63,227 bases of DNA, filler included, from Chrysochromulina tobinii (GCA_001275005.1; 5 parts of 5 records of this genome joined end to end with filler, not necessarily neighbours in it), one strand, 5' to 3'; counted from the whole stretch's first letter, positions 8,785-63,227 are shown. Numbers and translations are program-made. Notes: a model not told the origin generated them from the letters alone.

Positions 8785-10065
8785 TCACTTACTTACATTA
8801 CTACACCCGAGGGTGCCCGGCACCTCCAAGCCACCAGGTGGAGCGGTCCCGAGCACCCGATGCAGGAGCACATCGAGCGCGCCGCGGTTGCGCAGATCGC
8901 CCACAAGCATGTGTCCGCAATGCGGGTGCACGTCCATGGAGCACGCCGCCCCATGTCCCGACCTTGCCAGCGCCTCACAGAGCAGCTTCGCCTCCCGCAC
9001 GTCGCCTGCCGCGCCCGAGCCCACGTGCACCTCGATGCGTGGGCACCTTTCGGCAGCGCGCCCCACGGCGCCCATCTTGGTACCCAACATGGCGCACCCA
9101 ACGGCAGCGACCTCGGCTGCCTCTCCGTCAGCGCTGACTGCGCCCAACACGGCGCTGCTCCCGAGCAGCGCGTCGATGGCGGAGGGCAGCCGCGTCATCC
9201 CTCGCTGAGCGCAGCCTGCCTGTACGCGGCTGAGGTCGGCATCGAAGGAGCTCGGCGGCAGCGCCAGCCGCGATCGCTCCTCGCGATCGATGAAGACCTG
9301 CGGCGAGAAGGCGACCACCGAATCTGCCCGGAGTGCAATGCCCGCACGGATGGCGGCGTAACCTCCCATCGAAGCCCCCACCACGACGACGCGCGCCGGC
9401 CGGAGCGCTGCTACCTCGCGCTCGACCGCATCGACCACTGAATCGAAGCCCTCGCGCCCGGAGAGCGCCGCGCCTCCATGCTCGCCGAGCCCGAGGAGGT
9501 ACCTGTGGGGAGAGGGGCGTTGTAGTGAGCACTTGCATGCAGGCCGAGAGGTTCGTACACGGAGTCGAAGACGTACCAGGAGCGCCGCGCATCACGTACG
9601 AAGAGCGCGTGGCTCGCGCCGCACCGCCGGCACGCGCCGACAAACTCATGGCGCGCCACGCCGGCCGTGCCGCCACCCAGGGCTGCGAAGGCCACCACGA
9701 GCGTGCCGCACGGCGCCGCCGTGTCATACATCCGCAGCAGCGCATTCGGGTCGACGTTAGCGTGCACAGCCGCGGCGAAGCCGCCGGTCGGATTTCCAGC
9801 GCCAGTCTGTGCAGGCGCCGCCCCCTTTTCAGGCGCGGGCAGCGGCGTCGGCGGCGGCTGTCCCTCGTGACCTGGCGCGCGGCGGGCTTCAAACTCGACT
9901 ATGACCAGCTTATGGTCCGTGGCGGTGGTGGCCACATGCGCGCAGCTCCGCAGCCTCCAATTCCGGCTGAACGACTCGTCCGCGTACACGTAGTCGATGC
10001 GTGTGTCGAAGCGGCACGTACCCACCAACGACCCGTCCCGAGCGGCAGCAGCGCCGCCTGCGCTC

Positions 10066-13825: not shown

Positions 13826-16800
13826 ATGCGCCAGCGAAGCCAGCTGGTCTTAACGGAGCAGAACTCGGGTGGTACCTCCACCGCGTCGAGCACCCCGCTC
13901 GTCGCGTCGAGCGATGAAGCCTCCACGACGCCAAGGCACGACCCGTACCACGATCCAGACCCGCGGCCGGAGCTCGTGGAGCAGTGCATACAGCCCAGAC
14001 ACTGCAGCCTGGCCGAGGGCGACGCGCGCGAGTGGATGCACCGGCGGCTCTCGCACCTGGGCCACGTCTTCAACGAGCGCGGCGCGACCTACATGGCATG
14101 CGTTTGGTTCGAGCTCAGCTTCGCAGCCAGGCCAGACGCAGTCGCGGAGCTCATCAGCGCCATCAACATGCGCATGAAGCTCGGCCAGTGGGCGCTCGTG
14201 GAGGCGCTGTACCGGCGGATCGTGCGCATGGACCTGAGCAAGGAGGAGCGCGACGCCGCCTACCGCAAGCTCGGAGAGGCCACCTCCCTCAAGAGTGCTC
14301 GCGGAAGGCTTCGAGACAGCTCGAGCTCGACATCTCCCGCCAGCGACGGCACTGGCGCGAGCGCCTGTGCGGCTTCGCCTGGTCGGCTCGTGATGCAGCC
14401 GCAGACGCCGCTTTCGGCCAGCCACTCCAAGGCCGCGCCCAGCGCCTCGAGCGCCCTCGACGCTCGTTTCGAAGGGCTGAGCGCCGCAGAGGCCGAGCTC
14501 GGGCTGGTCCTCGAAGCGCCCGCGCTCGTCACCTCGGCGTCGTCGCTCACGCCGAAGCAGATCGAGCGGCTGCTGCCTCTGGTGCGCGGGTGCGCCTTCG
14601 CGGCCAACAAGGCGTGCGAGCTCGAGGCGGCGCAGCACTGGTTCGAGGCGAGCTATGCCCTCTCGTGCTCTGATTGCCTCTGATGACCTCCGATGACCTC
14701 TGATGACATCTGATGGTCTGCCTCATCAGGCGAGCTATGCCCTCTCGGCTGCCACGTGCGACCTCCTCTCAATCGCCGATGTGCGAGCGACGCGCGATCC
14801 CAATTGCGCCGTCGCCGCCGCCGTGCACGAACACCTGCGCCACGTCGCCGCCGCCAAGGAGAGGCGCATAGTCGAGCGCAAGGAGGGCGGCGACGGCGGC
14901 GTGCGGGGCACGGCAGTCAGGCCGAGCGGCGGTGCGAAGGGCTCCGCCGGCAGCAGCGCCGCCGGAACGGAGAGCGTCGTCTCGAATGTGCTCACGTTGC
15001 AGCGGCTTGAGGAACGTCTGGTAAGCACGTGGGGGTCGCTCTCGGCGCAGAACGAGGCGCTGCAGGCGACGCTCGAGGAGCACGCGCACGCCACGCACAG
15101 CCTTCGCGAGGAGGTAGCACGTCTACACGAGCTCCTCGCCACCAGGGATGGCCCCATCGAGCGGGGAGATCGGGGAGATGGCGGCGGCGGCGACCGCGAC
15201 CGCGACCGCGACCGCGACGGCGACGGCGAAGACGACGGCAAAGACGACGGCAAAGACGACGGCGACGGCGACGACGGCGGCGACGGCGACGGCGGCGGCA
15301 GCCCCATGCAATCGGAGAGCGTCCGCGTCCATTCGGTCAGCTCGTCCCAAGGCGGCCGCTGGACCACAGCCCCTCTGCTCATCGAGAGCGCGTCCACGGG
15401 TGCAGGGGCGGGCGTATGCGCGCACTCGCCCCAAGCGGCAGGGCCCATTAAACCCGTTGCAGTGAGGGCCGCCCCTCTCTCCAAGACCCAACCCCTCTCA
15501 AGGCACTCCCAAGACCCAAGTGAGGGCCGCCCCTCACTCAAGGCACTCCTCTCCAAGAGCCTCAAGGCACCCCTCTCCAACGGCTCGCACTCAAAGGGAG
15601 GCAGCGCGAGAGAGCGATCCAGCTGCTTCTCGCCCATCGCATCCGACGACGGCTCCAAAGATGGGCTTGCCTCCCCACTCCCCATCGCACGCGATAGCTC
15701 CGCCTATGAGCTTGATGGCAGCAGACGCAGCATGCGAGGCGACGACTCTCTTGCCACCGCTCGGGCCTCACCTGCGACTTCGAGCACTGGTACCGAGCAC
15801 GACTTGAGTCGAGGAAGGAATGCTGGTGCGCAGCTGAAGATGAAATGGGAGGAGGTCGAAGCCGATCGTAACATCGCGGTCATGCTCAAGGACGTCAGAG
15901 GGCGCATCGCCGAGTACGCGGAGAGGTCGGTACGCAAGCAGCCGACGATCGCGGACCTCGAGGCTGAGGGGACGCTGTACGTGCAGCTGCTCAAGGCGAC
16001 CAACCTGCTCGCGGCTGATGCTAACGGCCTCTCGGACCCGTACTGCAAGCTCATGCTCGGTGATCAGAAGCAGCGCTCGCGGAAGCTGTACAAGACCCTC
16101 GAACCCGTGTGGAATAACGAGGTGTTTGCCTTTGCGGGCTGCCTGGGCCAGCTCGTCGCCGAGCCTCTCCAGCTGACCATGTATGACTTCGACATTCTCT
16201 CGAGTGATGATAAGTTGGGAGAGGTGCAGATCGAGCTCGCCGACCACACGTACTGCAATGAGATCCGGCGGGATCTGACCGCTTGCCTGGACACACAGGG
16301 CGAGGTGTACATCCAGGTGTGGTGGGAGCCTGAGTCCACGGGAGACACTGATGGTGGCCGCCGGCCGAATCGGAAACGACGAGGGGCCGTTTCGAGTGAC
16401 GCGCCGAGCTATGCGTCGCGCCTCAAGGAGTTCATACTCGAACATGTGTGAAGACCCCCGCTGATGGTCACCTTGATTGCCCCCGATTGTGACGCGCGCC
16501 GTGCTCACGCGCCGTCGTCCGCTGCGCTGCCTAATTAGGTGATCCCTGAGAAGTTCCAGACGCTCAAGGGGTGCTGTGCCTCCATGTGCTTCCCAGTGAT
16601 CCGGCCCGAATCGCGCTTCCGCTCGGGATGGAACGTGGCCCTGGCCTTCTTCATCCTCTATTGCGGCATCGCGGTGCCTCTCGAGATTGCGTTTGAGCCA
16701 GATATGGTCCGTCCTCCTACCACTCGCCTTCCCAAACCTCGCCTCGCAGCTCAACCCTCGCCCCGCTCAACCCACACCCACCCCTGCCCATCCCTCAACC

Positions 16801-19800
16801 TCCGGCTGAACCCCCCGCTGCCGCTCCCTCCGCCCTCCCGCTACCCTCCCCCGCTCCCGCTCACCCATCCCCCTCCCGCTACTGCAGGTTAAGGCCTTTT
16901 GCACCGTGCCACACGATCCCTATGGTCCACTCACCCTTCGCCACGAGTGCCTGCCGTACTTGCTCTGGTTCTGGCTCAACTTCTTCGTCGACATCTTCTT
17001 CATCATCGACATTGTCATCAATTTCCGCACCGGCTACATGCACGAGGGCCACTTCGTCAACGACGACTGGATGGTCATGTCAGCGTACCTCAAGGAGTCC
17101 TTCATAATGGACGTGGCGAGCACAATCCCGCTCGGCATCATACAGATGCTCGCCAGCCCGGACAACCCGTACGGTGACGAGCAGATCACGCAGATGCAGA
17201 TCGCAGCGGAACAAGCGGCGGGTGGCAGCAGCGAAAATTCCGCGCAAACCGCGCGGATGCTGCGCCTCTTGCGCCTGGCGAAGCTGACGAAACTTGCGCG
17301 CATGCGAAAGCTCGCCAAGCTCGCCGAGTCTTTTGAGGAGTACATCAACCCGGGGGTCCTGGCCGTCTCAAAGCTCGTCTTCATCTCGCTCTTCTGCTGC
17401 CACCTCTTCGGCTGCCTCTGGTGGATGATCTCCGACCTCGAGATCGCGGAGGAGCTCGCGGGAACCATGTCCCCGGACTCGTGGTTCTCGACACCCTATA
17501 CGAGCGGCCCGAATGAATGGCATCCACCCCATTGGCTCAAGAACGAAGCGTCTCTCACCATGAAGTACATGCATGCCTTCTTTTGGGGCGCCGGGATGGT
17601 CACCTCGCTCGTGCCGCGCGAGGTCGACCCGACGACCGTGGTCGAGTACATCGTCACGTGTGCGGTCATGTTCTTCGGGCTCATGCTCAACGCGTACGTC
17701 ATCTCGTCGCTCTCCCAGGCCATGGCCGCGATGAACGCGAAGGCGGAGTTCACCGGAAAGCAAATGGAGTCGATCAAGTCGTATCTCACGATCAAGCAGG
17801 TGCCCAAGGCGCTCAAAGGGCGCATCATGGAGTACTACCATTATCTATTCGGCTCCAACATGGCGCTCGAGAACTTGGACTTGTTCCGCCAGCTGCCGCC
17901 CGCCCTCGTGATGCAGCTCAACCTGGCGACGAATCGGCGGCTGGCCATGAACTGTGCCTTCTTCCACAAGGTCTCGAATGAGTCTCTTGTGGAACTTTTG
18001 GGCCACTTCACGGCGGTCGTCTTCATCCCTTCACAGCAGATCGCCAGGCAGGGTACGCTGCTCCATGCCGCGTACTTCATCAGCCGAGGCATCGTTCAGG
18101 TGTCGACGCACGACAGCCCGACGCACTCGACCCTCACCAACACGGAGAGCTTCGGGCTCAATGATTATTGGGCGGGCTGCATCGCCAACGCCCCCCCCCA
18201 GTCATCACATTCGACGCATGCAATCACGTACTGTGATCTCATGTGCCTCGAGGTCGAGCATATCCATCGCACGCTCGCTACGGATAAGCCGTTCAAGCTG
18301 GCTCTGGCTGAGGCGCGCCGCACCGCCAAAGCCGCGGCGGCGGCCACTAGGCAGGCGATGCAACGGCGCAAGTTGCAGGGGAAAGTGCTCAACATGATGT
18401 TCGGCAAGAAGTCCAAGAAGCTAAAGGGCCCGTTCGCCAGGAACGGCCCCTCTCCGCCGGGCACCCCGCATTCGAGCCGCCAATCATGGGCGATTGCAAT
18501 GTGGCCCTCCATTCGGAAGCTGCTCTGGATGAAGAGATGGGAGGAGAACACAAGGGTTTCCCATGTCCCGCGCAGCGGGAGCCGCGACGAGATTGTGGCC
18601 GTTACCTCTCGGCTGGCCGAAAGGCTCCGCGTCGGCGTCCGTGTTGACACGCACGGAAGGGCCAGCCCCACATTTGGACGAATCGAGCTGAAGACTTCGC
18701 GCCTACGCGCAGTGCTTCTCCGGGCAGCGGCGAGGCACGAAGGGCGGAGTGGGGGGGGCGGGAGGTCAAGTGGGGGAGGCGGTGGGGGCTCGAGTGGGGG
18801 GAGCGGTGGCTCGCGTGGCGTCTCGCCGATTGTCGCCAGACGGACGGGCTCCTCGATGGTGACAGGCGCGGATGGCACAGGTGCAGATGGCACAACGCCG
18901 CCCCCTTCAACCCCGCCTCGAACCCCGATGATGGTACCAGCCTCCGCCGGCGCCGGCAGCATCAGAAGCAGTAGCAGCGATGGGAGCGATGCCCACAAGG
19001 TGGGTGCGGCGCTGCCCCCTCCTGCCCGTCTACCGCCACCGATTGTACCGATGGCCCCGTTGCCGATCGCATCGCCACTCCATCTTCCACGCCTCACAAT
19101 GCAATCGGCACCTGGCGCACGCACCTGCACCGGCTCTGCACCACCACTCGCAACGAGCCATGCGGCCATCGGCTCCACCACCTCCGCCACGCCTGCCTCG
19201 TGCTGCCAACCCGCGCACGGTTTCGTCAACCATGCTAATCGGGCAGCAGAGACGCCCTTCACCTCCTCCAGTTCCGCCCTCAAACCCTCCAGGGCCACTC
19301 TTTCGCGCAACTCGGACGGCCGTTTTGGCGTCTCCTTTCATTCTCCCGGCGACGGCACCATTCGGCTCGAACACATCTCGGACGCGCACGATGCGGACGA
19401 TGACCGTGTGCGTCTTGTCGCTGGCGACATTGTGCACTCGATCAACGGGATCCCGCTCGAGACACCTCGCGAGTCCAAGACAGATAGCGAGGAGGCGCTG
19501 CTCAGATTGATCGCCCACTCAGGCCAGCACGTGGTGCTACACGTGTGTCGCCCGTTTGCGACGGTCTCGGCCTCCACCGCCACCCCCCTCAAGCTTTGGC
19601 GTGGGGCGATGGATGGTACCGACGACGATTACATTGCCGAGGCCGCTGCGTCCGCTCGGGAATCGGCTCGGGAGCTTGGCCAGTGCTCCTCGGCGCGCTC
19701 GCGCCCAGGCAAGCTCTCCGCCAGGGGCTCCTCTACCCTCCTTCTCTCCTCGCGAAGCCCATCAGGCTCTGCTCGAAGTGGAGCACGGAGTGCGAGTTTC

Positions 19801-22235: not shown

Positions 22236-24114
22236 TCAGAGGTGCCCAGGAGGGGCCCACTTGAACTTGCTCTCAGTCTTCTTCTTGGCAATGGTTTGCT
22301 TGTTGATGGCGGCAGGCGCGTTGCTGAATTGGGTGTGGATGATGTGATCAGAAGCAGGCAGCAGCGTCGCACTCATTCTTATCACGGTTGTTTGCATCGA
22401 CTCCACGTAGTGGCGTTGGACAGTTAGGGGCTGCGCGACGCTACGGCCAGCGTCGTTCCACACGAAGTGGTTGAGCAGTGGATCCTTGCCGACCGCAGCG
22501 CTCGCAGGGGCGAGCGTGGGCGTGAGCTTCGGAGTGAGTGTCGGCGCGGCGGGCGCGGGCGCGGGTTTGGGCGCGGGTGGGTAGGCGGGCAGCCACTGTT
22601 TTCTTGCTTTTTGCTTCTTGACACGATGCCCTGCCGCCGCCTCTGCCTCCTCTGCCGACGCTCGCTCCGCCCCCGCTGCCACTTTCTTCTCTTTAATGCG
22701 CCTCGCGTAGTGCAGGGCCGCCTCGATGGCCGTCCGAAAGGTGCCCAGGGAGCGAAGTGAGCCATTCTCCATGAACTTTGCTTGGAACCCCTCGCCGTTC
22801 TTGTACACGCCCTTGTAGCCCGTCACACAGCTCGGCGACGGCACGAGCTCGAGCCCCTCGGCCTCCGCCGCCGCCCGAACCTCATCCGCCGTGAGCGGCA
22901 CCACCACGACATTCGCCGCTGCCACATCCGCCTCTGCCCGCTCCGCCCCAATGTGCCTAGCATAGGACAGGGCCGCCTCGATGGCCGTCCTAAAGGTGCC
23001 CAGGGAGCGAAGTGAGCCATTCTCCCTGACATTTGCTTCGAACCCGCCGTGGCTTTTCTTGTACACGCCCTTGTAGCCCGTCTCACAACTCGCCGACGGC
23101 ACCAGCTGGAGCCCCTCGGCCTCCGCCGCCGCCCGAACCTCATCCGCCGTGAGCGGCACCACCAGGTGCTTCGCCGCTGCCACCTCCGCCTCAGCCCGCT
23201 CCGCCCCAATGTGCCTAGCATAGGACAGGGCCGCCTCGATGGCCGTCCTAAAGGTGCCCAGGGAGCGACGTGAGCCATTCTCCCAGACATTTGCTTGGAA
23301 CCCCCCGCCGTTCTTGTACACGCCCTTGTAGCCCGTCTCATTGCTTGCCGACGGCACCAGCTCGAGGCCCTCGGCCGCCGCCGCCGCCCGAACCTCGTCC
23401 GCCGTGAGCGGCTGCGCGTCCGCCGCCTCAGCCGTCGCTCGCTCCGCCCCAATGTGCCTCGCATAGGACAGGGCCGCCTCCTCCGGCGTCGCGAAGCTGC
23501 CGAGGTGGCGCGACTTGCCATTCTCCTGGACCTGCGCCTTGTACCTGCCGTCGTTCTTGTACACGCCCTTGTAGCCCGTCTCATTGCTTGACGACGGCAC
23601 CAGCTCGAGGCCCTCGGCCGCCGCCGCCGCCCGAGCCTCGTCCGCCGTGAGCGGCTGCGCGTCCGCCGCCTCAGCCGCCGCTCGCTCCGCCCCAATGTGC
23701 CTCGCGTAGCACAAGGCTGCCTCACCCGGCGTCGCGAAGGTGCCGAGGTGGCGCAGCTTGCCATTCTCCCAGACCTGCGCTTGGTACCTGCCGTCGTTCT
23801 TGTACACGCCCTTGTAGCCCGTCTCATTGCTTGACGACGGCACCAGCTCGAGGCCCTCGGCCGCCGCCGCCGCCCGAACCTCGTCCGCCGTGAGCGGCTG
23901 CGCGTCCGCCGCCTCTGCCGCCGCTCGCTCCGCCCCAATGTGCCTCGCATAGGACAGGGCCGCCTCGATGGCCGTCCTAAAGGTGCCCAGGTAGCGACGT
24001 GAGATATTCTCCCAGACCTTTGCTGCGAACCCCCCGCCGTTCTTGTACACGCCCTTGTAGCCCGTCTCATTGCTTGCCGACGGCACCAGCTCGAGGCCCT
24101 CGGCCGCCGCCGCC
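22236..24114 (-). CDS. Tandem AP2/ERF-like DNA-binding repeat protein (at least 6 repeats, 5' truncated by gap)
   Basis: Six ~81-aa (243-nt) units of the form TGYKGVYK.....A.V.ENG..R.LGTF.T..EAAL.YAR. Confidence 0.85.
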
Positions 24115-47686: not shown

Positions 47687-50600
47687 ATGGTGGTGCATGG
47701 AAATGCCGAGATCCCCAAACTCGTCGCGCAGATGGCGTCAGGCACCATGGCCGAAAAGGAGAAGGCCTCGGGCTATCTCAACCGGATCCTTCAGGCGCAC
47801 CCGGATCAACGGGCCAAGAATGCAGACGCGATGATCAAGGAGGGCGTGATCGCACCGGCACTGGCGCTGCTCAAGGAGGGCAATGCACCTGGCCAAACGG
47901 CGGCCTCGGGCATCATCTACTGCATCGCCGAGGGAAACCGCGAAATCCAGGTGCAGGTCGTCCAGGCGAATTGCATCGAGCCGCTGGTGAGCATCCTGAA
48001 ATCGGGCAGCCCGGGCGCGCAGGAACACGCGGCCGGAGCGGTGGCGAGTATCTCGGAGGACATATCGACGCAGAGGCCGCTTATGAAGGCAGGCGCCATC
48101 CCACCACTCGTGCAGCTGCTCCGCTTTGGCTCAGCCAGCGCGCAGGTGCACGCGTCGAACGCGGTCGCGCACCTGTCGGCGGGCAACTTGCAGGGGCAGA
48201 ACCAGATCGCTGCGGCCGGCGCGATCCCGTTGCTGCTCAAGCTGCTCGAGAGCGGCAAGGCGCAGATGGCGGCGGCATTCGCGATTGGGCGTCTGGCCGC
48301 GGGTCACGCGCTCAACCAGTTGGCCATCGCCGAGGCAGGTGGAGTCGCACCGCTGCTGTCGCTGCTGAACGTGACGAGCGTGGAGACGAACGTGGAGGCG
48401 GCGAACGCGCTGCTCGAGCTCGCGCGCGACAACCAGCTCACTCAGACCGCGATCGCCAAGGCAGGCGGCATCGGTCCCTTGCTCGCGATGCTTCCAAGTC
48501 GTTCCGCGATGGCGCAGAGTCGTGCGGCCGGTGCGCTCGCGCAGCTGGCACGCTTCAATCGGGAGAATCAGGACTCGGCCGCGCGACAGGGGGGGCTGCC
48601 GCTCCTCGTCGGTCTTCTGCCCGGCACGAGCGGCGCGGAAGTACAGGTGAGTGATGCAGCTAATGGCTTCTTAGTGCCTGACTGATTGCGACTGATTGAT
48701 ACTGATTGAGGCTGATTGCACGACCTCGGTGGTGCAGGCGATGTCCGCTCTCGCCATCGCCGAGATCTGCCGAAACAACAAGGGCAACCAGGATCTGCTG
48801 TACGACTTAGGTTGGCTCCCACCACCCACGCACCCCGAACCCGAACCCGTACCCGTACCCTAACATGACCTGCTGTCTGACGCACCCGGAGCCCGAGCCC
48901 TAACGATCCCGTACCCGTGCCCTTACCGTACCTGCTGTCTGACCATAGGCGGCATCCCACCACTGACGGTGCTACTCAAGCACAAGGAGAGCGCGGAGGT
49001 GCGCGCGGAGGCGGCGGGGGCCGTGTATTGTCTGGCCGATGGGCACGAGAACAACAAGACTTCCATCGCCTCCGCGGGCGGCATCAAGCCGCTCATCACG
49101 TTGCTTGGCAGCGGCACGGCGCGCGCGCAGGAGCACGCTGCCAACGCTCTCGCGAGCCTCTCGTTCGGCAACGTTGAGAATCAGGTGATCTGATGACCGC
49201 TGATGGGCGCTGATGGCCTCTGATGGCCTTTGATGGCCTCTGATGGCCTCTGATGGCTTCCTCTGATGGCCTCTGATGGCCTCCTCTGATGGTCTCTGAT
49301 GGCCTCCTCTGATGGCCTCTCACGGCCTCTCATGGCCTCTGATGGCCTCTGAGTGCGTCATGATTGCCTGTGCTCGGCCAGATGGTGATCGTGGCGCCGC
49401 TGCTCGAGATGCTCAAGCTGGGAAACGCCGATGCGAGGACGCGTGCCACGACGGCGCTCTGGCGGATGGTGCACGAGAACCCGGAGCAGCAGCGCGAGAT
49501 TGCAGCTGCGGGCTTCGTCAATCCGGCTGACCTCGTCCACCTGCTGCGTGAAGGCGTACCGGCGGCCAAAGAGTTTGCGCTCTGGTCCATCTCCCTCGCG
49601 ACGGATGAGACCAACCAGAGAATGATTATGGAGGAGGGAGGGATCCGACCGCTCGTGGCGGCACTGATGGCGCCCGCTGTGGAGCAGCGCGAGCATGCGG
49701 CCGCTGCCCTCGCACGCCTCGCGACCGGCTGCAGCGAGACGCAGCTTGCAATTGCGCGTGAGGGTGGCGTGGCGCCGCTCATCGCGCTGCTCGACGCCGG
49801 CATGGGCTCGCAGTCGACCCAGGTCAAGGCCGCAAGGTGCCTCGCGCTGATGGCCGAGCAGAGCGAGAATAAGGACGCGATCGTGGCCGCGGCCGCCGTC
49901 TCCCAGCTGGTGAGTCCCATTGATGGGAGATTGAGGAAGAGATTGATCGGGGAGATTGATCGGGAGATTGGTGGGGAAAAGTCTCGTCATATGGCCTCTG
50001 ATGCCCACTGCTTGCGCACTCGTGGCCGCCGTCGCCGTCTCACCCGCTGGTGGCGCTCCACTCTGACGAAACTTCTGATCACTTGCCTGGATGGCCTCAC
50101 TGAGTGCGTCACTGATTGCCCCGTTCATCAGGTGGCGCTCCTCTCCGACGGTGAGACGGAAGCGAAGCGAATGCGCCGCCGCGGCGCTCGCGCGGCTCGC
50201 CCACAACGACGCGCAGACGCAGCTGGCCATCGGCGAGGCGGGTGCGATTGCGCCACTGGTCAATCTGCTAAGAGGCGATCGAGGCGAGACGGCGCAGGAG
50301 GAGGCGGCGGGGGCCCTGTTTGAGCTGGGCGCACAGGCAGTCAACCGTCTTGCGATCACGGAGAGCGGCGGCATCGGGCCGCTCGTCGTGCTGCTCGGAT
50401 GCAGTAACGCCAAGGCGCGAGGGCACGCGATCGGGGCGCTCTCGCGCCTGTCGATCGAGAATGCGAACCGCGTCCTCATCATCAAGCAGCTCGTCTCGAT
50501 GCTCAGCGACCAGGGCGCAGGCGCACAGGAGCAAGCGGCCGCCGCGCTCGCCAATCTTGCGAGGGACTCCGCGGACAATCGCGTCTCGATCGTGGACGCG

Positions 50601-53600
50601 GGTGGGATCGCGCCGCTGCTTGCGCTGCTCGATAGTGACTCCTCTACGGCGAAGGAGAACTCGGTCCGCGCCTCGGATGGCCTCTGATGAGCACAGATGG
50701 TCTCGGATATGGCCTCTGATTGCACGGCCAAGGAGACCTCGCCCACCGTGGGCGGTCGCCCAGCATGCACATGCTCAGCACGACGCCCCACTTCCCCCTT
50801 CCCCACAGGTGCGCGCCCTCTCGCAACTCGCCCATCGCTCGTGGGCGAACCAGGCGGCGATCGCCAAAGAGGGCGGCATCCCGAAGCTGGTCAACGTGCT
50901 CTCGTCAGCGGTGTCGAACATCAAGGACGTGGCGGCGGCGGAGCTTTGCTCTCTCGCGGCGGCGGCTGTGAATGAGATGTGCAAGGGCAATGCGCCCAAC
51001 CAGGCCGCGTTCTCGTCGAATGAGGCAAACGCCATCACGCCGATCGTACAGATGCTCGGCAACCCCGACCCGCAGATGCAGGCGAGTGCGAGCGGCGCCC
51101 TCTCAGAGTGCATGCTGTGTGCATCTCTGAGTGCATGCTGATTGCCTCCCTCATCAGGCGAATGCGAGCGGCGCCCTCTCAGCCCTCGCGCGCGGCAGCC
51201 CAGACAACCAAGCGGCCATCGCACGCACAGGCGCCATCGCGCCTCTGTGTACGCTCGTACGCGACGGCTCGCCCGAGACGAAAGAACAGGCGGCCTCCGC
51301 CCTCTGGTCACTCTCGAACGAGAACGCGCCGAATAAGGCCACGATCGCCAAGCTGGGCGGCATCGAGCCACTCGTGGGCTTGATTGTGAGCGGCGCGTCC
51401 GAAAAGTCCGTAGCCAATGCGGCTGGTGCGCTCGCGTCGCTCGCGGCGAAGCACACCGAGAACCGCTCGTCGGTGGCGAAGCGGCTTGTGGCGCTGCTCA
51501 ACGGCAAGGTGGCCGAGCGGGCGGTGCGCGTCATGTCAGCGATCTCGACTCTCTGTGCGGACAACCAGGCAAACCAGCTCGCGATTGCCAAATTTGGAGG
51601 CATCCCGCCTGTGATCGGCTGGCTCTCCTCACCCGACCCAGGGGCGCAGAAGGCGGCGGCGTTCGCGCTGCTCCATCTGGCCAAGGAGAATACGACGACG
51701 CAGGTGCTCATTGCCAATATGAATGCCTCTCATTGCCTCTAATAGCGCCTCTAATTGCCTCCTCGACGCAGGTGCTCATTGCCAATATGAATGCCTCTCA
51801 TTGCCTCTGATTGCCTCTAATTGCCTCCTCGACGCAGGTGCTCATTGCCAATATGAATGGCATCCCGCCGCTCGTGCAGCTCGTCTCTTACGGCTCCATC
51901 GAGGCCCAGGAGTCGGCCGCGCGCGCGCTCTGGCACCTCGCATCATCCAATGAGGCGAAGGAAGCGATTGCGGAGAGTGGCGGCATAGGGCCGCTCGTGG
52001 GCATGCTCTCCGTCGAGGACGAGCGCTCCCAAGAGATTGCGACGGTGACCATCTCGCGCCTCGAGGATTCCCCGTCTGATGAGGCGCGATTCACCGTCTG
52101 ATGAGGCGCGATTCCCCGTCTGATGAGTATCCTCCTCTTCCCCATCTACAGGTGACCATCTCGCGCCTCGCGCGTGGCAACCTGAAAGTGAGCATGACCA
52201 TCGCGGAGAGCGGCGGCATCGTGCCGCTCGTGCGTCTCATTTGCTCGGGAGATCGCTCCGGAGATCGTCACATGAGCTCGGGGCAGACGGTGCTCCAGGC
52301 GACGGCCGCCCTGCATGCAAGTGCTCACCACGGCGCCATTTCCCCACAGACGGTGCTCCAGGCGACGGCCGCCCTGGCCGAAGTGAGCCTCGTACCTGCC
52401 AATCGCGAGCTGATCGCACGCGCGGGCGCCATCCCCGCCCTCGTCTCGCTCCTCGCGAGCTCCGTCGCGGGCACTCCGGAGACGGCCGCTCGAGCGCTCG
52501 GGCACCTCGCCCGAGACGGCGCGCTCAAGCTGCCGCCGAGCGACGACGCGGCCGCAGCAGCTGTGAACGTTCACACATCCTACCCCGACACCGGCGGCCG
52601 TCCCCGGCAGCCATCTCGCGAGATCGGACGCGAGATCGGACGCGAGATCGGACGCGATCTCCCGACCGATCTCCCGCCGCCGCCGACGGGTGAGTGCGCC
52701 CTTGCGCCCGACGACGGCGCTCGAGACGGCGCGCTCTTCGACGGCGCGGCGCGTCGCCGCCTGATCCGTACATGCGGCGGCGTCAGGCACCTTGTCCAAC
52801 TGCTCGACCCGGTGAGCGCGATCGAGCTTCAGAATGAGGGACGAGAGGCCAAGAGCAGCAAGCACTTGTGGATGGGCGTCAAAGCTGTGGCTACGGTGTC
52901 CAGCGCTGTGCCGAGCGCTGTGCCGAGCACGGTGACGAGCGCTGTGCCGAGCGCGGTGTCGAGCGCTGTGCCGAGCGCGATGTCGAGCGCTGTGCCGAGC
53001 GCGGTGTCGAGTGCCGTGCCGAGCATGAGTACGGAAGGCTCCGCGGACCCCGAGCTGGTTGTGGGAGTGCAGGAGGCGGCAGCGGCGGCGCTGGCGGACC
53101 TCGCATACGGTGATGAGGAGATCCAGGCGGCCATCATTCAGGCGGGGGGCGTGGTGCCGTTGCTCGCGATAGTCCGGGGCGTTTCGTCAGCTTTGTCGAT
53201 TGCGTCGGGAATGAGCTGCGCGATCTCGGCGGGCGCCCAGGAGCACGCCGCACGTGCTATCTGGAACTTGGCCGCCTCGCCTGACAATCAAGACGTCATC
53301 GTCGAGAACGGCGCCATCCCCGAGCTCGTGACCCTAGTACGTGATGGCTCGCCCAGAGCGCAGGAGGTCGGGGCGGCGGTGCTATCCGAGCTCGCACACG
53401 GAGCGGTGCTGCTGCACCAGAGGCTACAGCTGCAGCAGAGGGCGCAGCTGCAGCACCAGACAGAGGAGCAGCTGCAGCGGAAGGTGGATGCGGGAGGCGA
53501 CGGCGGCGTGGCAACGGCTGAGGAGGACGACGACGTGGAGCCGTATGCAAGTGCTCACCACGGCGCCATTTCCCCACAGGACGACGACGTGGAGCCGTAT

Positions 53601-56600
53601 GACAACTCGAGGCTGACCGAGATCGCGTCCGCGGGCGGGATCGCTCCGCTAGTGGCGCTGCTGGGGAATGGGAGCGTCGGGGGCAAGGAGCACGCCGCCT
53701 CGGCCCTGTTTTTTTTGGCGGCACACCCGGCGAATCGCCTCTCTATGGCCAAGGCGGGCGGCATCGCGCCGTTGGTGGCGCTGCTCGATGAGGGTACTCA
53801 GGTGGACGATGCTGATTGCTACTGATTGCCACCGAGTGCCACCGAGTGCCACCGAGTGCCACTGATTGCCACAGAGTGCCACTGATTGCCTCTGATTGCC
53901 ACAGAGTGCTACTGATTGCCACAGAGTGCCACTGATGGTCACAGAGTGCCACTGATTGCCACTGATCGCCACTGATTGCCTCTGACCGCCACTCATCACC
54001 ACTGATCGCCACTGATCGTCACTCAGGCGGCTCATGAGCACGCGTCGAATACGCTCGCTCGGCTCGCGATCCATTCGACCGAGAACCAGACGGGTATCTC
54101 GAAGAAGCTCGTCGAGCTGCTCCGAGTGCCTCGGTCCATGACGCAGCAGCGTGCTGCGCGCGCCCTGCGATCGCTCGCTGTGAACAACCCGTCGAGCTCC
54201 ACGATCATCGTGAACGCAGGCGCCATCTCGCCGCTCGTGACACTCCTCGCCACAGGTGCGACGGGGGCGAGGGAGGAGGCCAAGGTCGCACTGCACACGC
54301 TCGCCCTCAACGCGCCTTCGAATCAGCTTGCGATTGCGACTGGGTTGGTGGCACTCCTGTGCACGGGGGCGGCAGAGGCTCAGGAGCATGTGACACGCCT
54401 GTTGCTCACCCTCGCCACCGATGCCACCAACCGCGTCGCGATCGCCAAGGCGGGCGCCATCGGCCGTCTGGTCATGCAGCTCAAGCAGGGCAAGGAGGCG
54501 GGCGGCTCCTTGGCTTGCCAGACGAGCCTCAAGTCGCAAGAGCTCGCCGCGGCCGTGCTCGCCCAGCTGTCGGCCGACTCGGAGGCCAACGTGGGTGCGA
54601 TCGCCGCGTGCGCGAGCACCAAGGCGCTCATCGCGCTGCTCGGCTCGGCCTCCGAGTCGGCGCAGGCGCACGCGGCCGCGGTGCTTGCGGACTTGACGCG
54701 CGGGTCGAGGGAGATGCAGGGAGATCAAGGGAGATCGGATGAAATCGAGGCGAGATCGAGGGAGATGCAGGAGGACGTGGCACGCGAGGGCGGCATCGAG
54801 CTGCTCGTTGGGCTCCTTTCGGGCGAGCACGCGTGCACCGAGGCCGCCAACGCCATTTGGTCGATCGCGGCCGGCGACGAGGACATGAAACACATGGTCG
54901 CCCGAACGGGCGCAATCCCGCCGCTCGTAGCGCTGCTGGGCCGGCCAGGAGTCGTGCGCCTTCGTGCAGCAGGTGCGCTCGGTACGCTCGCGTGCGGCTT
55001 AGCCGTCCACCAGAACGCAATCGCAGCTGCGGGCGGCCTCGCGCCGCTCGTGTCTCTCCTCGGCGATGGTGGCAAGCTCAGTGCGTCGCCCGCGGAGAGC
55101 GAGGCGCACGCTGCGAGATCGCTCGCGAGCCTCGCGGACGGTCACGTGAGCAACGCGATCGCGATCGCCGAGGCGGGCGGCATCGTACCTCTCGTGCAGG
55201 TGGCGGATTCTGATTGCCACCGATTGCCACCGATTGCCACCGATTGCCACTGATGGCCTCTCAATTGCCACTCATAGCCACTCATAGCCACGGATTGCCA
55301 CGGATGGCCACGGATGGCCACGGATGGCCACTCATTGCCACTCATTGCCACTCATTGCCACTCATTGCCATCGTACCTCTCGTGCAGCTGCTCCACGACG
55401 CCACGCCCGCCGCCGCCGCTTCTGCCGTCGCCGCCGCCCCCGAGGCGCACACGTACAGGTGGCGGGTGGCGCCTGGGACGGCGCCATTGGAGTGGGCGCG
55501 CGAGGAGGCGGCAAGAGCGCTGCATGCGCTCGCGTGTGGCTGCCCCCCCAACCAGTCCGCCATCGCGGAGGCGGGCGGCATCGCGCCACTCGTGCGCCTG
55601 CTCTCCTCGGGCACCGAGAGTGCTCAGGTGTTCAGCGCCAAAGCGCTTGCCTCCCTCGCGGTGGAGCACGAGGCGAATGAAGCGACCATCTGCGCGCAGA
55701 TGGTCCAACTCCTTGGCTTGCCGGACAAGCAGGCGGCGGCACGCGCGGCCCAAGCGATCGCACGGCTCGCTCACAAGGGGCTGCCCGCCTCCCAGGCCGC
55801 CTTTGCGCGCGCAGGCGCCATCAGCTTGCTCGTCACGCTGCTCAAGAGCGCGGGCCACTCGCTCGGCGCCTCCAAGGAGAGCGCCGCCTCGAGCGCCTAC
55901 CTGCAACGGGAGAGCGCCGCGGCGCTCGGGGCGCTCGCCGAGGGGCACCCGGCAAACCAGGCCGCCGTTGCGGCCGAGGGGGGCATCGTTCCACTCGTGG
56001 CGATCCTGAAAGAATACCATCAGCCTGAGGTGTATGGTGAGGTGGCGCGAGCGTTGTGGAGGGTAGGTGGTCATCCACCGAACCAGCTCGCCATCGCCCA
56101 CGCCGGCGGCATCACACCGCTCGTGCACCTGCTCGCGCAGTCTGTGAGCGTCGAGGCGAGACGAGAGGCGGCGGGTGCCCTCGGGGTGCTCGCCCAGCAG
56201 CCAGAGAACCGAACAGCCATCGCGCGCGCCAATGGCATGCCGGCCCTCGTGGCTCTGTTTGAGCTCGACTCGATCTCCGCCGCCGAGCAGGCCGCTTCGG
56301 CGCTCACGACCCTCGCGACCGATGACGTTGCCAATCAGCGCGCGATTGCGACGGAGCTGGTGGCCACCCTCAACAACTCCCCGAGCGTGGCCGCTCAGGA
56401 GCAGGTGACGAAACTCCTAGGCGCTCTCGCTACCAATCCCGACAATCGCGGCGCCATCGCCGACGCCGGCGCCATCCCGCCTCTGGTGCGACAGCTTGCA
56501 GCTGGCTCGTCGGCCGCGCAGCAGTCGGCCGCGGCCGCCCTCTTCCAGATTGCGCGCCACTCAGCCCGGACGCCCGTGGCCATCGTCAAAGAGCTCGTCT

Positions 56601-57030
56601 CACTGCTGGGCTCGCATACCGTAGCCGTCCGCCAGCATGCGGCCGCTGCGCTCAGGGAGGTCGTGCTCGCCTCAGCATTCGCGGGCTCGGGGCTCTCCAT
56701 GCCGGGCGACATGGCGAGCGTCGTGCCGGGCGGCATGGCGAGCGTCGTGATGGCCGATGGCGCCGAGCCGCTCGTCGCGTTCCTCCGCGACGGATACGTC
56801 GAGGCGCAAGAGTATGCGCTCTGGTCGCTCTCCCTCTCGACCGAGCCGAAGCACAAGATCGCCATCCTCGAAGCGCGGGTGATCGAGCCGCTCATCGCGG
56901 CGCTCAATGGGAAGCTCTCCGCCGACGCGCAGGAGCACGCGGCATGCGTGCTCTCCTTGCTCACTAGCACGGCGCCGACGGCGACCGATCTGGTCCTCGA
57001 GGATCAAACCGCCGCCGCCGCCGCCGCCGC
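47687..57030 (+). CDS. Giant armadillo-repeat protein, multi-exon, 3' truncated by gap
   Basis: Dozens of AGGIxPLVxLL..G...AQE.AA.AL repeats. Introns 48647-48737, 48811-48948, 49185-49381, 49910-50131, 50664-50808, 51082-51157, 51704-51837, 52045-52151, 53802-54026 and 55200-55387 restore the frame. One +1 frameshift near 50168. Confidence 0.88.
51696..51859 (+). repeat. Three exact copies of a 30-nt exon segment spanning AG|GT
   Basis: cgacgcaggtgctcattgccaatatgaatg at 51696, 51764 and 51830. Confidence 0.95.
52315..52349 (+). mobile_element. 35-nt splice-acceptor cassette (candidate introner-like module), copy 1
   Basis: atgcaagtgctcaccacggcgccatttccccacag is identical at 53545-53579 and lies between 30-nt direct repeats. 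Mobility is inferred. Confidence 0.55.
53545..53579 (+). mobile_element. 35-nt splice-acceptor cassette, copy 2
   Basis: Identical to 52315-52349; lies between 24-nt direct repeats. Confidence 0.55.
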
Positions 57031-61817: not shown

Positions 61818-63227
61818 ATGGACGCCAAGTGGCAGCTGTCGTGCTCCCCTGTGCGCGCAGATGATGAGACGGAGTGGGAGCCCCCATTCGCAATGGAGGG
61901 GCTGGTGAGTGACAGCTTCGTGACGGCCCACGCGATGGTCGACGCGCTCCGTCGCGGCGACGAGGCCAAGGCCGTGGGCCTCATCGACAGGGTGACAGGA
62001 GCGGCCCACCTCGGCCTTTGCCTGCTTGGTGCATGTGAGACTGGTCACCCTACGTGCACGAAGCTGCTGCTCGCCGCCCACGCCGCCGTCGACCAGGCAG
62101 ACAGCAACGGCACCACGCCTCTAATCGTCGCCTGCGACAAAGGCGACGGCGACTGCGTGCAGCTGCTGCTCGCCGCCCACGCCGCCGTCGACCAGGCAGA
62201 CAGCAAGGGCGGTACCCCTCTGATCTACGCCAGCATCAAAGGCGACGGCGACTGCGTGCAGCTGCTGCTCGCCGCCCACGCCGTCGTCGACCAGGCAGAC
62301 AGCAAGGGCGGCACACCTCTGTATGCTGCCTGCTGCAAAGGCAACGTCTACTGCGTGCTGCTGCTGCTCGCCGCCCACGCCGTCGTCGACCAGGCAGCCA
62401 GCAACGGCAACACGCCTCTGATCACCGCCTGCGACAAAGGCGACGGCGGCTGCGTGCGGCTGCTGCTCGCCGCCCACGCCGTCATCGACCAGGCAACCAG
62501 CAACGGCGTCACGCCTCTGCTTGCCGCCAGCGACAGAGGCCACGGCGACTGCGTGCAGCTGCTGCTCGGCGCCTACGCCGTCGTCGACCAGGCAACCAGC
62601 ACAGGCACCACGCCTCTGAGGGCCGCCTGCGGCAAAGGCCACGGCGGCTGCGTGCAGCTGCTGCTCGGCGCCCACGCCGCCGTCGACCAGGCAGACAGCA
62701 AAGGCGTCACGCCCCTGTACGCCGCCTGCGACAGAGGCCACGGCGACTGCGTGCAGCTGCTGCTCGGCGCCTACGCCGTCGTCGACCAGGCAACCAGCAC
62801 AGGCGTCACGCCCCTGTACGCCGCCTGCGACAAAGGCCACGGCGGCTGCGTGCGGCTGCTGCTCGCCGCCCACGCCGCCGTCAACCAGGCAGCCTGTGAC
62901 GGCACCACGCCTCTGATCGCCGCCTGCTTCAAAGGCGATGACGGCTGCGTGCAGCTGCTGCTCGCCGCCCACGCCGCCGTCGACCAGGCAGATAGCAACG
63001 GCGCCACGCCTCTGATCGTCGCCTGCATCAAAGGCCACGGCGACATAGTCAAGCTGCTCGTGCATGCAGGCGCACGCACCGACTTGCGAGGCGCTGCGGG
63101 CACAGCCCTCGATGTCGCAGAGGCCCAAGGCCACACCGTCATCGCAACATTCCTGCGCAGCCGGCGCCGCGCACCTGCGACGATCGCTGCGGTCGCTCCG
63201 GTGTCGAGTGCGGAGCGTGCGGCAGCC
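61818..63227 (+). CDS. Ankyrin-repeat protein (about 11 repeats), runs off the window
   Basis: ATG at 61818 opens a frame with 99-nt units VDQAxSxGxTPLxxACxKGxGxCVQLLLxAxA. Absent from the ORF track because it has no stop in the window. Confidence 0.92.
   Translation, partial: MDAKWQLSCSPVRADDETEWEPPFAMEGLVSDSFVTAHAMVDALRRGDEAKAVGLIDRVTGAAHLGLCLLGACETGHPTCTKLLLAAHAAVDQADSNGTTPLIVACDKGDGDCVQLLLAAHAAVDQADSKGGTPLIYASIKGDGDCVQLLLAAHAVVDQADSKGGTPLYAACCKGNVYCVLLLLAAHAVVDQAASNGNTPLITACDKGDGGCVRLLLAAHAVIDQATSNGVTPLLAASDRGHGDCVQLLLGAYAVVDQATSTGTTPLRAACGKGHGGCVQLLLGAHAAVDQADSKGVTPLYAACDRGHGDCVQLLLGAYAVVDQATSTGVTPLYAACDKGHGGCVRLLLAAHAAVNQAACDGTTPLIAACFKGDDGCVQLLLAAHAAVDQADSNGATPLIVACIKGHGDIVKLLVHAGARTDLRGAAGTALDVAEAQGHTVIATFLRSRRRAPATIAAVAPVSSAERAAA

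Follow-up and report, generated by a model that had tools for sequence, protein, structure and literature searches.

Introns and in-frame inserts combining an exon copy with a common filler in a Chrysochromulina tobinii armadillo-repeat gene: candidate introner-like insertions

Exon copies and filler in an armadillo-repeat gene

The window, the whole stretch of Chrysochromulina tobinii DNA that was analysed (63,227 nucleotides), carries an armadillo-repeat gene in which many introns consist of an exon copy joined to filler (Table 1). The gene is ~3,500 codons long (~3,493 in contig L003); 11 exons, 10 introns and 2,606 codons lie within the window, and the gene continues beyond the contig end into L003. 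Once the 10 introns had been taken out, together with an extra base at 50169 that 3 of 3 RNA runs, DNA run X4 and the sister-strain contig L005 omit, the gene model was stop-free and its translation gave Pfam Arm matches. Nine of the 10 introns are in phase 0.

Table 1. Features of the window, in window coordinates
Feature	Position	Strand	Basis
Armadillo-repeat gene	47687..57030	+	stop-free model, Pfam Arm, continuation in L003
GT-AG intron, CTGATTG-repeat filler, no exon copy	48647..48737	+	skipped in RNA contig (X12 record 1)
Predicted intron, degraded copy of next exon start, CCCTAAC/CCCGAA-like filler, in-frame stop	48811..48948	+	p=0.005
Predicted intron, (CTGATGGCCT)n and module-B-like end, no clear copy	49185..49381	+	gene model
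Predicted intron, internal 49-nt copy flanked by filler on both sides	49910..50131	+	local alignment p=0.003
Extra base in window assembly, apparent frameshift	50169	+	missing in RNA, DNA, L005
Spliced intron, 9-nt copy of next exon, module-A-like end	50664..50808	+	RNA joint
Spliced GC-AG intron, 25-nt next-exon copy (51082-51106) and module B (51125-51157)	51082..51157	+	RNA joint
Predicted intron, three 30-nt repeats (51696, 51764, 51830) enclosing two tandem units	51704..51837	+	sequence
Spliced intron starting with 19-nt copy of next exon	52045..52151	+	RNA joint
In-frame 63-nt insert, no GT/GC at start, retained in RNA	52287..52349	+	RNA, orthologues
In-frame 54-nt insert, no GT/GC at start, retained in RNA	53526..53579	+	RNA, orthologues
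Spliced intron, own donor, (ACTGATTGCC)n filler, 6-nt end match only	53802..54026	+	RNA joint
In-frame 51-nt insert, GAGATC-type filler, ending in 16-nt copy of preceding sequence	54721..54771	+	RNA read-through
Predicted intron, own donor, (ACTCATTGCC)n filler, ending in 19-nt previous-exon copy	55200..55387	+	frame
Predicted GC-AG intron in another gene, 18-nt copy of next exon	14648..14729	+	removal opens frame
Predicted intron in another gene, 9/11 next-exon copy and module A	9503..9576	-	removal opens frame

The original prediction held that introns here begin with a copy of the following exon or end with a copy of the preceding one, and every repeat it named (51082, 51704, 52045, 50664, 14648, 9576 and 55369) was found in the sequence. 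We scored the copies against a null of 1,461 GT/GC and 481 AG exonic sites from the armadillo-repeat gene. The strongest matches (each p=0.0007) were an imperfect one of 24/25 between 51082-51106 and 51158-51182, one of 19/19 at 52045, and the copy at 51704, which lies within a 30-nt repeat (8 nt upstream and 22 nt downstream) occurring three times; for these three introns a single null site matched the score, presumably the junction itself. The copies at 50664 (8/9; p=0.0014), 14648 (18/18; p<0.001) and 9576 on the minus strand (9/11; p=0.002) also exceeded the null, as did the reverse-polarity match of 55369-55387 to 55181-55199 (19/19; p=0.002). The 6-nt ACTCAG at 54021 is real but weak (p=0.006), because the filler of that intron consists of CACTCAT/CACTGAT repeats, and it was rejected as support for reverse polarity. 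Long reverse-polarity material was found in intron 55200, in the in-frame insert 54721 and in the internal copy of intron 49910. No exon copy was found in introns 48647 and 49185 (two of the ten in-window introns of the gene) or in four other candidate introns of the window (16446, 16707, 45855 and 46859; 0/4).

Duplication length varies from 16 to 40 nt overall and from 16 to 36 nt at the DNA level, and the duplicated target sequence makes up as much as half of an intron; the predicted long and variable duplications were thus borne out, as was the proposal that the copy gives one splice site and the common filler the other. Foreign common filler sits between the copies in every listed case, so the insertions are not pure host duplication, and tandem genomic duplication alone was rejected on this ground. 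Insert 52287 comprises a 30-nt duplication (52284-52313 = 52347-52376) and a filler segment designated module A (52313-52349), and insert 53526 a 24-nt duplication (53524-53547 = 53578-53601) and module A. Intron 50664 also holds an internal 18-nt copy of the previous exon (~50724-50741), and the internal copy of intron 49910 (~50020-50068, ~84% identity), which is also present in L005, spans the exon-exon junction. Intron 49185 differs in length in L005, and intron 51704 has one 66-nt unit in L005 versus two in the window. Removal of intron 55200 restores both an Arm motif and the frame, and contig L004 carries 210 nt with the same ends.

RNA contigs revealed splicing at 50664, 51082, 52045, 53802 and 48647. 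The spliced joint appeared in 4 of 4 RNA runs for 50664, 51082 and 53802 and in 2 of 4 for 52045, with a consistent loose end in a third run; for 48647 it came from one RNA contig. The spliced duplication-bearing introns were therefore 50664, 51082 and 52045. Intron 48811 was retained in one X12 contig, and one X17 contig stops about at its donor branch. No spliced joint was seen at 55200 in RNA contigs, which have no cover at 55376-55547. Insert 52287 was read through on the same RNA contigs that carry the spliced 52045 joint, and inserts 53526 and 54721 were likewise read through. Retention of these segments in mRNA had been named as evidence against the original prediction: introns 50664, 51082 and 52045 are spliced, and inserts 52287 and 53526, which have no donor and which the original prediction had overlooked, are retained. 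Since these two inserts share the build of the introns yet stay in the RNA, the process makes insertions of which only some become introns.

Module A in other genes and the insertions in relatives

Module A, with a shared stretch of only ~40 nt, was detected in 80 additional ORFs at 59 loci; 13 of these ORFs bear varied Pfam domains, indicating similar sequence in unrelated genes. A representative-protein search contributed 6 further proteins, and a C. parva gene model that clusters with a C. tobinii protein also carries module A. The test at the peptide level used 57 loci, after removal of 15 proteins in which the motif was incomplete and of 2 short-flank loci. A run of at least 18 nt compatible with a copy of the downstream exon was present at 33 of the 57 module-A loci, compared with 3.2% of 600 mismatched pairs, which upheld the prediction that the pattern spans other genes. 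The distance from copy start to module was 20-39 nt in 29 of these 33 duplication-bearing loci.

The module itself has a tight 5' boundary, with loose contig ends accumulating at 52313; such ends also indicate that module B of intron 51082 is common to many contigs. The longest terminal inverted match was 2-3 nt in 6 of 6 fillers, and no poly(A) tail, terminal microsatellite or element body was seen at the inserts. Modules A and B folded no better than shuffles (module A z 0.34); intron 51082 did fold better (z -2.3), owing to an internal palindrome. An Rfam search gave two sub-threshold matches, neither convincing. No reverse transcriptase or endonuclease was linked to the module, the sole mobile-element-like ORF seen carrying RNase H only. 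Antisense in-frame inserts numbered none among 9 ORFs (0 with Pfam), a small sample under selection, and 8 of these 9 candidates are compatible with ordinary sense introns read backwards. Pattern scans in viral contigs yielded one contig or nothing, and two matches to the pattern in a genome collection lie in bacterial genes and are due to chance.

The independent sister-strain contigs L004 and L005 carry the same duplications, with independent substitutions, and all 7 introns and 3 inserts with full cover are shared. Insert 53526 was present in 13 of 13 close orthologue ORFs and in 0 of 14 more distant ones, where the empty site keeps one copy. Insert 52287 was missing in 4 of 12 close orthologue ORFs, again with a single copy left; both of its copies have M in the outgroup, where the ingroup has V. 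In P0007 (42% identity), by-eye comparison showed sequence running straight through both the 52045 and the 53802 intron position. The orthologue check found the in-frame inserts, and by eye two introns, absent from some relatives. The description of the process as ongoing is only partly borne out: the 7 introns and 3 inserts fully covered by the sister contigs are common to window and sister strains. The near-identity of the exon copies gives no insertion date, because copies can be homogenised. A metagenome scan for the locus returned 4 loci only, none from the 88% lineage.

Further structural variation was evident among the proteins. One site has two structures, a 7-codon copy and gap in the P0117 cluster versus a 13-codon copy in P0177; one intron has a unit from another gene's intron (P0138 cluster versus P0056 cluster); and tandem arrays occur in L003 near 18800-18981, in P0056 and in P0074.

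Junctions and candidate mechanisms

Inserts 52287 and 53526 have their 3' end at an acceptor CAG and both follow AG in the target; because they are unspliced, this ending was not selected by splicing. Q or E directly precedes the copy in 9 of 13 in-frame loci, hand-picked as 15 rows minus P0054, P0056 and P0107 (tandem or edge cases) plus P0050 (merged by script), against a background of 8.3%; selection for strong donors may be a source of this enrichment. The 3' end is fixed and the 5' junction variable within a narrow range, about -9 to +15 nt. Microhomology was found at the 5' junction in three DNA cases (TG, ATG, TG) and in peptides (AL, ALHA, VH), and other 5' junctions carry 1-5 extra codons.

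We consider the introns to be introner-like insertions at a staggered cut, probably formed by target-primed reverse transcription of an RNA ending at the intron acceptor, a reading to which we give about an even chance. Non-LTR retrotransposon machinery would act in trans on a short RNA. From the duplications, the cut would be ~20-40 nt wide in an exon, often just after (C)AG; the terminal CAG of the RNA would pair at the first nick and be copied, and the copy would join the other end through the few-base microhomology or few extra bases that mark the junctions. Fill-in would then leave the observed arrangement of target copy, branch-point/acceptor module and target copy. A unit whose copy begins with GT or GC would be spliced, as at 50664, 51082 and 52045, and one whose copy lacks them would survive only as an in-frame peptide duplication, as at 52287 and 53526. 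Slippage between the direct repeats could later double units, as is seen, or remove them and homogenise the copies. Reverse polarity, with one clear case, might arise if the template's donor end were kept instead of its acceptor end. Several points count against target-primed reverse transcription: no reverse transcriptase or endonuclease was linked to the module, the 5' boundary of module A is tight, unlike broad 5' truncation, ZfL2-2 insertions seldom have duplications >20 bp, and insertion is expected to be strand-blind, yet antisense inserts are lacking from the 9 ORFs, a weak objection. A lariat template would probably also need debranching, as module sequence extends beyond the predicted branch point in the upstream direction.

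On a more specific version, which we hold tentatively and think rather unlikely, excised spliceosomal introns are themselves the templates, without a master element. At a staggered cut, the retrotransposon enzyme would use the free 3' AG of an excised intron for priming, so that new introns could be seeded by any intron whose acceptor end is strong, and the long target duplication would give donor and minimum length. If true, this route would constitute self-feeding intron gain, separate from DNA introners and reverse splicing.

Chief among the rivals is the repair of staggered double-strand breaks from a DNA template, in which fill-in duplicates the target, the broken end copies a patch of intron module by microhomology, and selection keeps spliced or in-frame products. 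We regard it as a realistic possibility, though short of an even chance. Junction microhomology and extra bases fit it, as do the several unrelated filler families present and the internal copies of both flanks in introns 49910 and 50664; judged from its sequence, intron 49910, with filler, a junction-spanning copy and filler again, looks more like templated break repair than target-primed insertion. The foreign unit in P0138 could stem from ectopic exchange between modules, and according to PMC3443670 43% of gained Daphnia introns have short direct repeats at their flanks, which are read there as staggered-break repair. Repair nevertheless leaves the exact acceptor ending of the two unspliced inserts unexplained, makes no obvious prediction of the narrow 20-39-nt spacing, and predicts antisense captures and run-on into donor exons, neither of which was seen in the small sample. 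The exon copies might instead have been written into older introns by local slippage or conversion between exon and intron, and the extra unit of intron 51704 in the window, the tandem arrays, the M/V difference shared by both 52287 copies and the introns common to sister strains agree with this. We judge it improbable, because in-frame inserts without a donor cannot have been introns, 53526 is cleanly missing in 14 of 14 outgroup ORFs, P0007 reads through two intron positions, and slippage is unable to bring the module to a site without one nearby.

A MITE-type introner (a non-autonomous DNA transposon) making an exceptionally long cut would suit the fairly fixed ends of module A, the ~82% of classified introners that are TIR DNA transposons (as given in PMC12130899) and the introners in marine Chrysochromulina MAGs (listed in the PMC9860276 supplement). 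It is very unlikely: terminal inverted repeats are lacking, module A folds no better than shuffles, and the reading is largely refuted by a duplication length that varies and far exceeds 3-9 bp. The metagenome assembly was built from short reads alone and contains one base error, at 50169, but artefacts around a high-copy repeat are scarcely credible, given that L004 and L005 show the same structures with independent substitutions, that RNA has spliced joints and that the copies differ from the exons at some positions. Intron transposition by reverse splicing was ruled out by the long duplications and by the sharing of only the 3' part.

Comparison with described introners and significance

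Symbiodinium microadriaticum and Chrysochromulina sp. (MAG family 5) have introners in which the target-site duplication is co-opted for one splice site (Gozashti et al. 2022, PMC9860276), and both splice-site polarities are described, including in Chrysochromulina sp. (PMC9860276 Fig. 2B, 2C). The C. tobinii introns resemble these and the Polarella glacialis classes (bioRxiv 10.1101/2020.10.14.339549) in dividing the two splice sites between duplication and element, in both polarities, in phase-0 bias and in some insertions adding codons. The duplications of the co-opting introners, however, are described as having a set length of 3-9 bp within each family, and inverted repeats often accompany them, whereas those of C. 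tobinii are 16-40 nt, variable and without inverted repeats. With both polarities already known, only length and variability are new here. The claim of a distinct mechanism is weakened to that extent, and of the claim of both polarities, the long reverse case depends on intron 55200, for which RNA showed no spliced joint, together with insert 54721 and the internal copy of 49910.

The 2025 survey (Gozashti et al. 2025, PMC12130899) lists C. tobinii with 0 introner families. Its Emiliania huxleyi fam24 (5 copies, '10bp terminal direct repeats') and Pavlovales fam1 (7 copies, non-LTR) both co-opt the 5' and carry the 3' splice site. By table description, not sequence, they match the C. tobinii introns in polarity and phylum, fam24 also in terminal direct repeats and fam1 possibly in its non-LTR class; both are tiny families, and their rows mention no long variable duplication. 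Non-LTR elements offer a second parallel. Short 3' fragments of RTE elements are flanked by 20-bp as well as variable duplications (PMC2887409), and LINE ZfL2-2 insertions show ~50% 5' microhomology, 40% extra nucleotides and 80% 3' microhomology, with duplications >20 bp rare (1/25 in wild-type cells; PMC2666801). Such 5'-truncated insertions share with those of C. tobinii variable duplications (theirs up to ~20 bp), a fixed 3' end, short 3' fragments, and microhomology or extra bases at the 5' junction. The C. tobinii insertions differ from them in having a splice acceptor as their 3' end, in duplications that as a rule exceed 20 nt and in showing no poly(A). In tandem-duplication intron gain (PMC3443670) a duplicated AG|GT likewise gives the splice sites, which 51704 fits, but foreign filler is lacking; new introns gained by break repair are also flanked by direct repeats, but the inserts described there form no common family with a fixed acceptor end. 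A literature search, with most subscription papers outside its reach, returned no description of the present pattern.

Where new introns come from is still an unsettled question, and ~72% of introner families remain mechanistically unclassified (PMC12130899). Because as much as half of every intron is specific to its locus, surveys that rely on whole-intron similarity would likely miss this family. Cut width and junctions can be read from each insertion itself, alleles with and without the insert coexist, and failed insertions persist as peptide duplications, which together make the mechanism testable in culturable algae with public genomes. As the retained inserts indicate, the same process adds duplications of 18-21 residues to proteins.

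Exon copies in an armadillo-repeat gene

The finding was located on the contig at 47515-57030, whose product is an armadillo-repeat protein (Pfam Arm). Once 10 introns were removed, together with an additional base at 50169 that was absent from 3/3 RNA runs, the DNA run X4 and the sister-strain contig L005, 2,606 stop-free codons remained. In metagenome locus L003 the gene runs on, through one further intron, to a length of about 3,493 codons; the search for relatives returned no named close match. The window contigs were concatenated through 100-nt N-linkers with a six-frame stop motif (24115, 28219, 47415 and 57031), so neighbourhoods across the linkers are meaningless. Directly upstream of the window contig, L003:3-2402 (+) holds an open frame of 799 codons, truncated by the locus start, that has an RNase H domain (PF00075, E 2e-9) and a long C-terminal part without assignment; it is possibly a mobile element.

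The original prediction held that many introns begin by repeating the start of the next exon and that others end by repeating the end of the previous one. The repeats that it named were all present and exceeded chance, with 1,461 GT/GC and 481 AG exonic sites as the null. An ACTCAG match at 54021 was also found but is weak as support, because the filler consists of similar units. Exon copies were detected in 0/4 of the other candidate introns in the window. Two in-frame inserts consisted of a copy plus a module, that is, a short shared filler end (A or B) carrying the branch point and acceptor. The filler units of intron 48811 presumably resemble telomeric repeats.

Introns, inserts and related repeats (names are start coordinates in the window; "new" marks features absent from the original prediction)
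Feature	Position	Copy or repeat	Beyond exonic-site null	Spliced joint
Intron	9576	degraded copy, 9/11	yes	
Intron	14648	18-nt copy	yes	
Coding exon	15461-15560	17-nt direct repeat, 58 nt apart, with repetitive filler; frame stays open		
Intron	48647	no exon copy		one RNA contig
Intron	48811-48948	filler of CCCGAA/CCCGTA/CCCTAAC units		
Intron	49185	no exon copy		
Intron	49910	49-nt copy spanning exon junction (new)		
Intron	50664	degraded copy, 8/9	yes	4/4 RNA runs
Intron	51082	copy, 24/25 nt	yes	4/4 RNA runs
Predicted intron	51704	30-nt repeat, three copies	yes	
Intron	52045	19-nt copy	yes	2/4 RNA runs
In-frame insert	52287-52349	copy + module, no GT/GC at start (new)		
In-frame insert	53526-53579	copy + module, no GT/GC at start (new)		
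Intron	53802			4/4 RNA runs
Predicted intron	55200	19-nt copy of previous exon	yes	
L003 sequence	L003:13622-13695	begins with 36-nt copy (new)		
L003 tandem array	L003:18795-18981 (-)	at least 3 units, each a 12-nt copy of next exon + module-B-type filler		

Splicing was assessed on contigs from six metatranscriptome runs, which indicate presence, not levels, and whose libraries may contain DNA. The expected junctions were recovered at five introns. Two results count against the reading: intron 48811 was retained on one contig of RNA run X12, and X12 and X13 contigs enter 55200 by 41 nt without any spliced joint appearing there. Indirect support for intron 55200 came from its removal, which restores the Arm motif and frame, and from the version in sister contig L004, which has identical ends (210 vs 188 nt). 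Insert 52287 was read through on X15 and X16 contigs that also bear the spliced 52045 joint, and the 53526 module sits on X12 contigs connected to the spliced 53802 junction; both inserts are therefore retained in RNA.

Comparison with sister contigs and relatives

A metagenome scan for the gene yielded four loci, of which two matched the window exactly and the other two were sister contigs; across 1,494 codons, L004 differed from the window by 33 synonymous and 20 non-synonymous changes. Among relatives, empty sites were seen for inserts 52287 and 53526. The sister contigs share all 7 fully covered introns and all 3 inserts. At 51704, L005 carries a single 66-nt unit and the window two. In a comparison by eye, protein P0007 (42% identity) continues without interruption where introns 52045 and 53802 lie.

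Insert 53526 was present in 13/13 close orthologue ORFs and in 0/14 of a lineage ~88% identical over aligned residues, where the empty site retains one copy. Insert 52287 was absent from 4/12 close orthologue ORFs, and these four span two haplotype backgrounds. It was found in 13/13 outgroup ORFs, with M rather than V in both copies. All four empty alleles came from one source database and may reflect assembly collapse; however, empties were 4/8 vs 0/13 within that same database (p = 0.012), which argues against it. Two histories fit: the site received a second insertion, or a single old insert underwent conversion and precise loss. Identical copies are thus no proof of recent origin.

Module A in other genes

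A search with a module-A peptide profile recovered 80 new ORFs. We scored 57 loci, two of them from the armadillo-repeat gene, leaving out 15 proteins in which the motif was incomplete and 2 loci whose flanks were short. An uninterrupted run of at least 18 nt compatible with a downstream-exon copy occurred in 33/57 loci, compared to 3.2% of 600 mismatched pairs; this count is a peptide-level proxy covering only ORFs that stay open across the module. The copy started 20-39 nt from the module in 29/33 loci, and the next residue was V in 49/57 and A in 3/57, as expected for GT/GC donors. At the peptide level, the junctions showed either microhomology or a few additional codons, 5 at most.

Module A was also found in a named protein of C. 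parva that clusters with one from C. tobinii; at one site in this cluster, most members have a 7-codon copy and a gap, and P0177 has a 13-codon copy. In 7/7 members of the P0138 protein cluster, an intron includes, whole or in part, a unit with an exon-like part from the P0056-cluster gene, which points to copying between introns. An antisense profile, weak as evidence on strand, returned 9 ORFs; 0 had a Pfam family, and 8 could be ordinary introns read in reverse. At L008:4495-4554, module A followed by GTGAGT lies at the extreme end of a contig catalogued as viral, probably host DNA adjoining virus-like sequence.

Published introners and possible mechanisms

Intron gain here is real and introner-like, and its target duplications are unusually long and variable. 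The distinct mechanism originally proposed stands in that the duplications are real, long and variable, but introner-like insertion of both polarities is already published: Gozashti et al. 2022 (PMC9860276) describe introners of both polarities whose duplications measure 3-9 bp and, in Chrysochromulina sp., a donor-carrying family whose duplication is 4 bp. Roy et al. (bioRxiv 10.1101/2020.10.14.339549) give fixed 3-8-nt duplications, and Gozashti et al. 2025 (PMC12130899) list non-LTR elements as 5% of categorised introners, an E. huxleyi family whose terminal direct repeats are 10 bp long, and 0 families in C. tobinii. The review PMC3443670 treats duplication and repair models and warns that old introns are also flanked by short repeats; the accessible part of PMC3636483 has no usable duplication lengths. 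The literature search, with subscription papers and some supplements outside it, found no description of haptophyte introns with 20-40-nt variable duplications.

The insertions combine long variable duplication, a fixed acceptor end, junction microhomology and later slippage; no inverted termini were seen in them, and splicing occurs where the copy begins with GT/GC. As to enzyme and template, we infer that an RNA ending at an acceptor may have been copied into the target by target-primed reverse transcription. We favour this mechanism, at about an even chance, because the unspliced inserts too stop precisely at the acceptor and are preceded by AG. The same junction types are known from LINE insertions (PMC2666801, PMC2887409). 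Against it stand the tight 5' edge of the module, the failure to find a partner element, the lack of antisense copies in the antisense profile, which is weak on strand, and the rarity of duplications >20 bp in ZfL2-2 (PMC2666801), unlike here.

DNA-templated break repair, a possible but less probable account, agrees better with 49910 and with the variety of fillers. The tandem arrays, but not new sites, would be explained if old introns had been rewritten locally, which we consider improbable. That excised introns, not a master element, serve as templates for new introns via a retrotransposon enzyme is a tentative reading that we judge rather unlikely.

Other repeats were present in the window. 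Larger imperfect duplications lie near its start (176-850 and 400-1745), with ~480 nt spacing and the second block ~1.1 kb apart. An array of 243-258-nt coding repeats at 22700-24114 (-) presumably resembles AP2-like DNA-binding units, and the 99-nt coding repeats at 62050-63060 (+) probably resemble ankyrin repeats.
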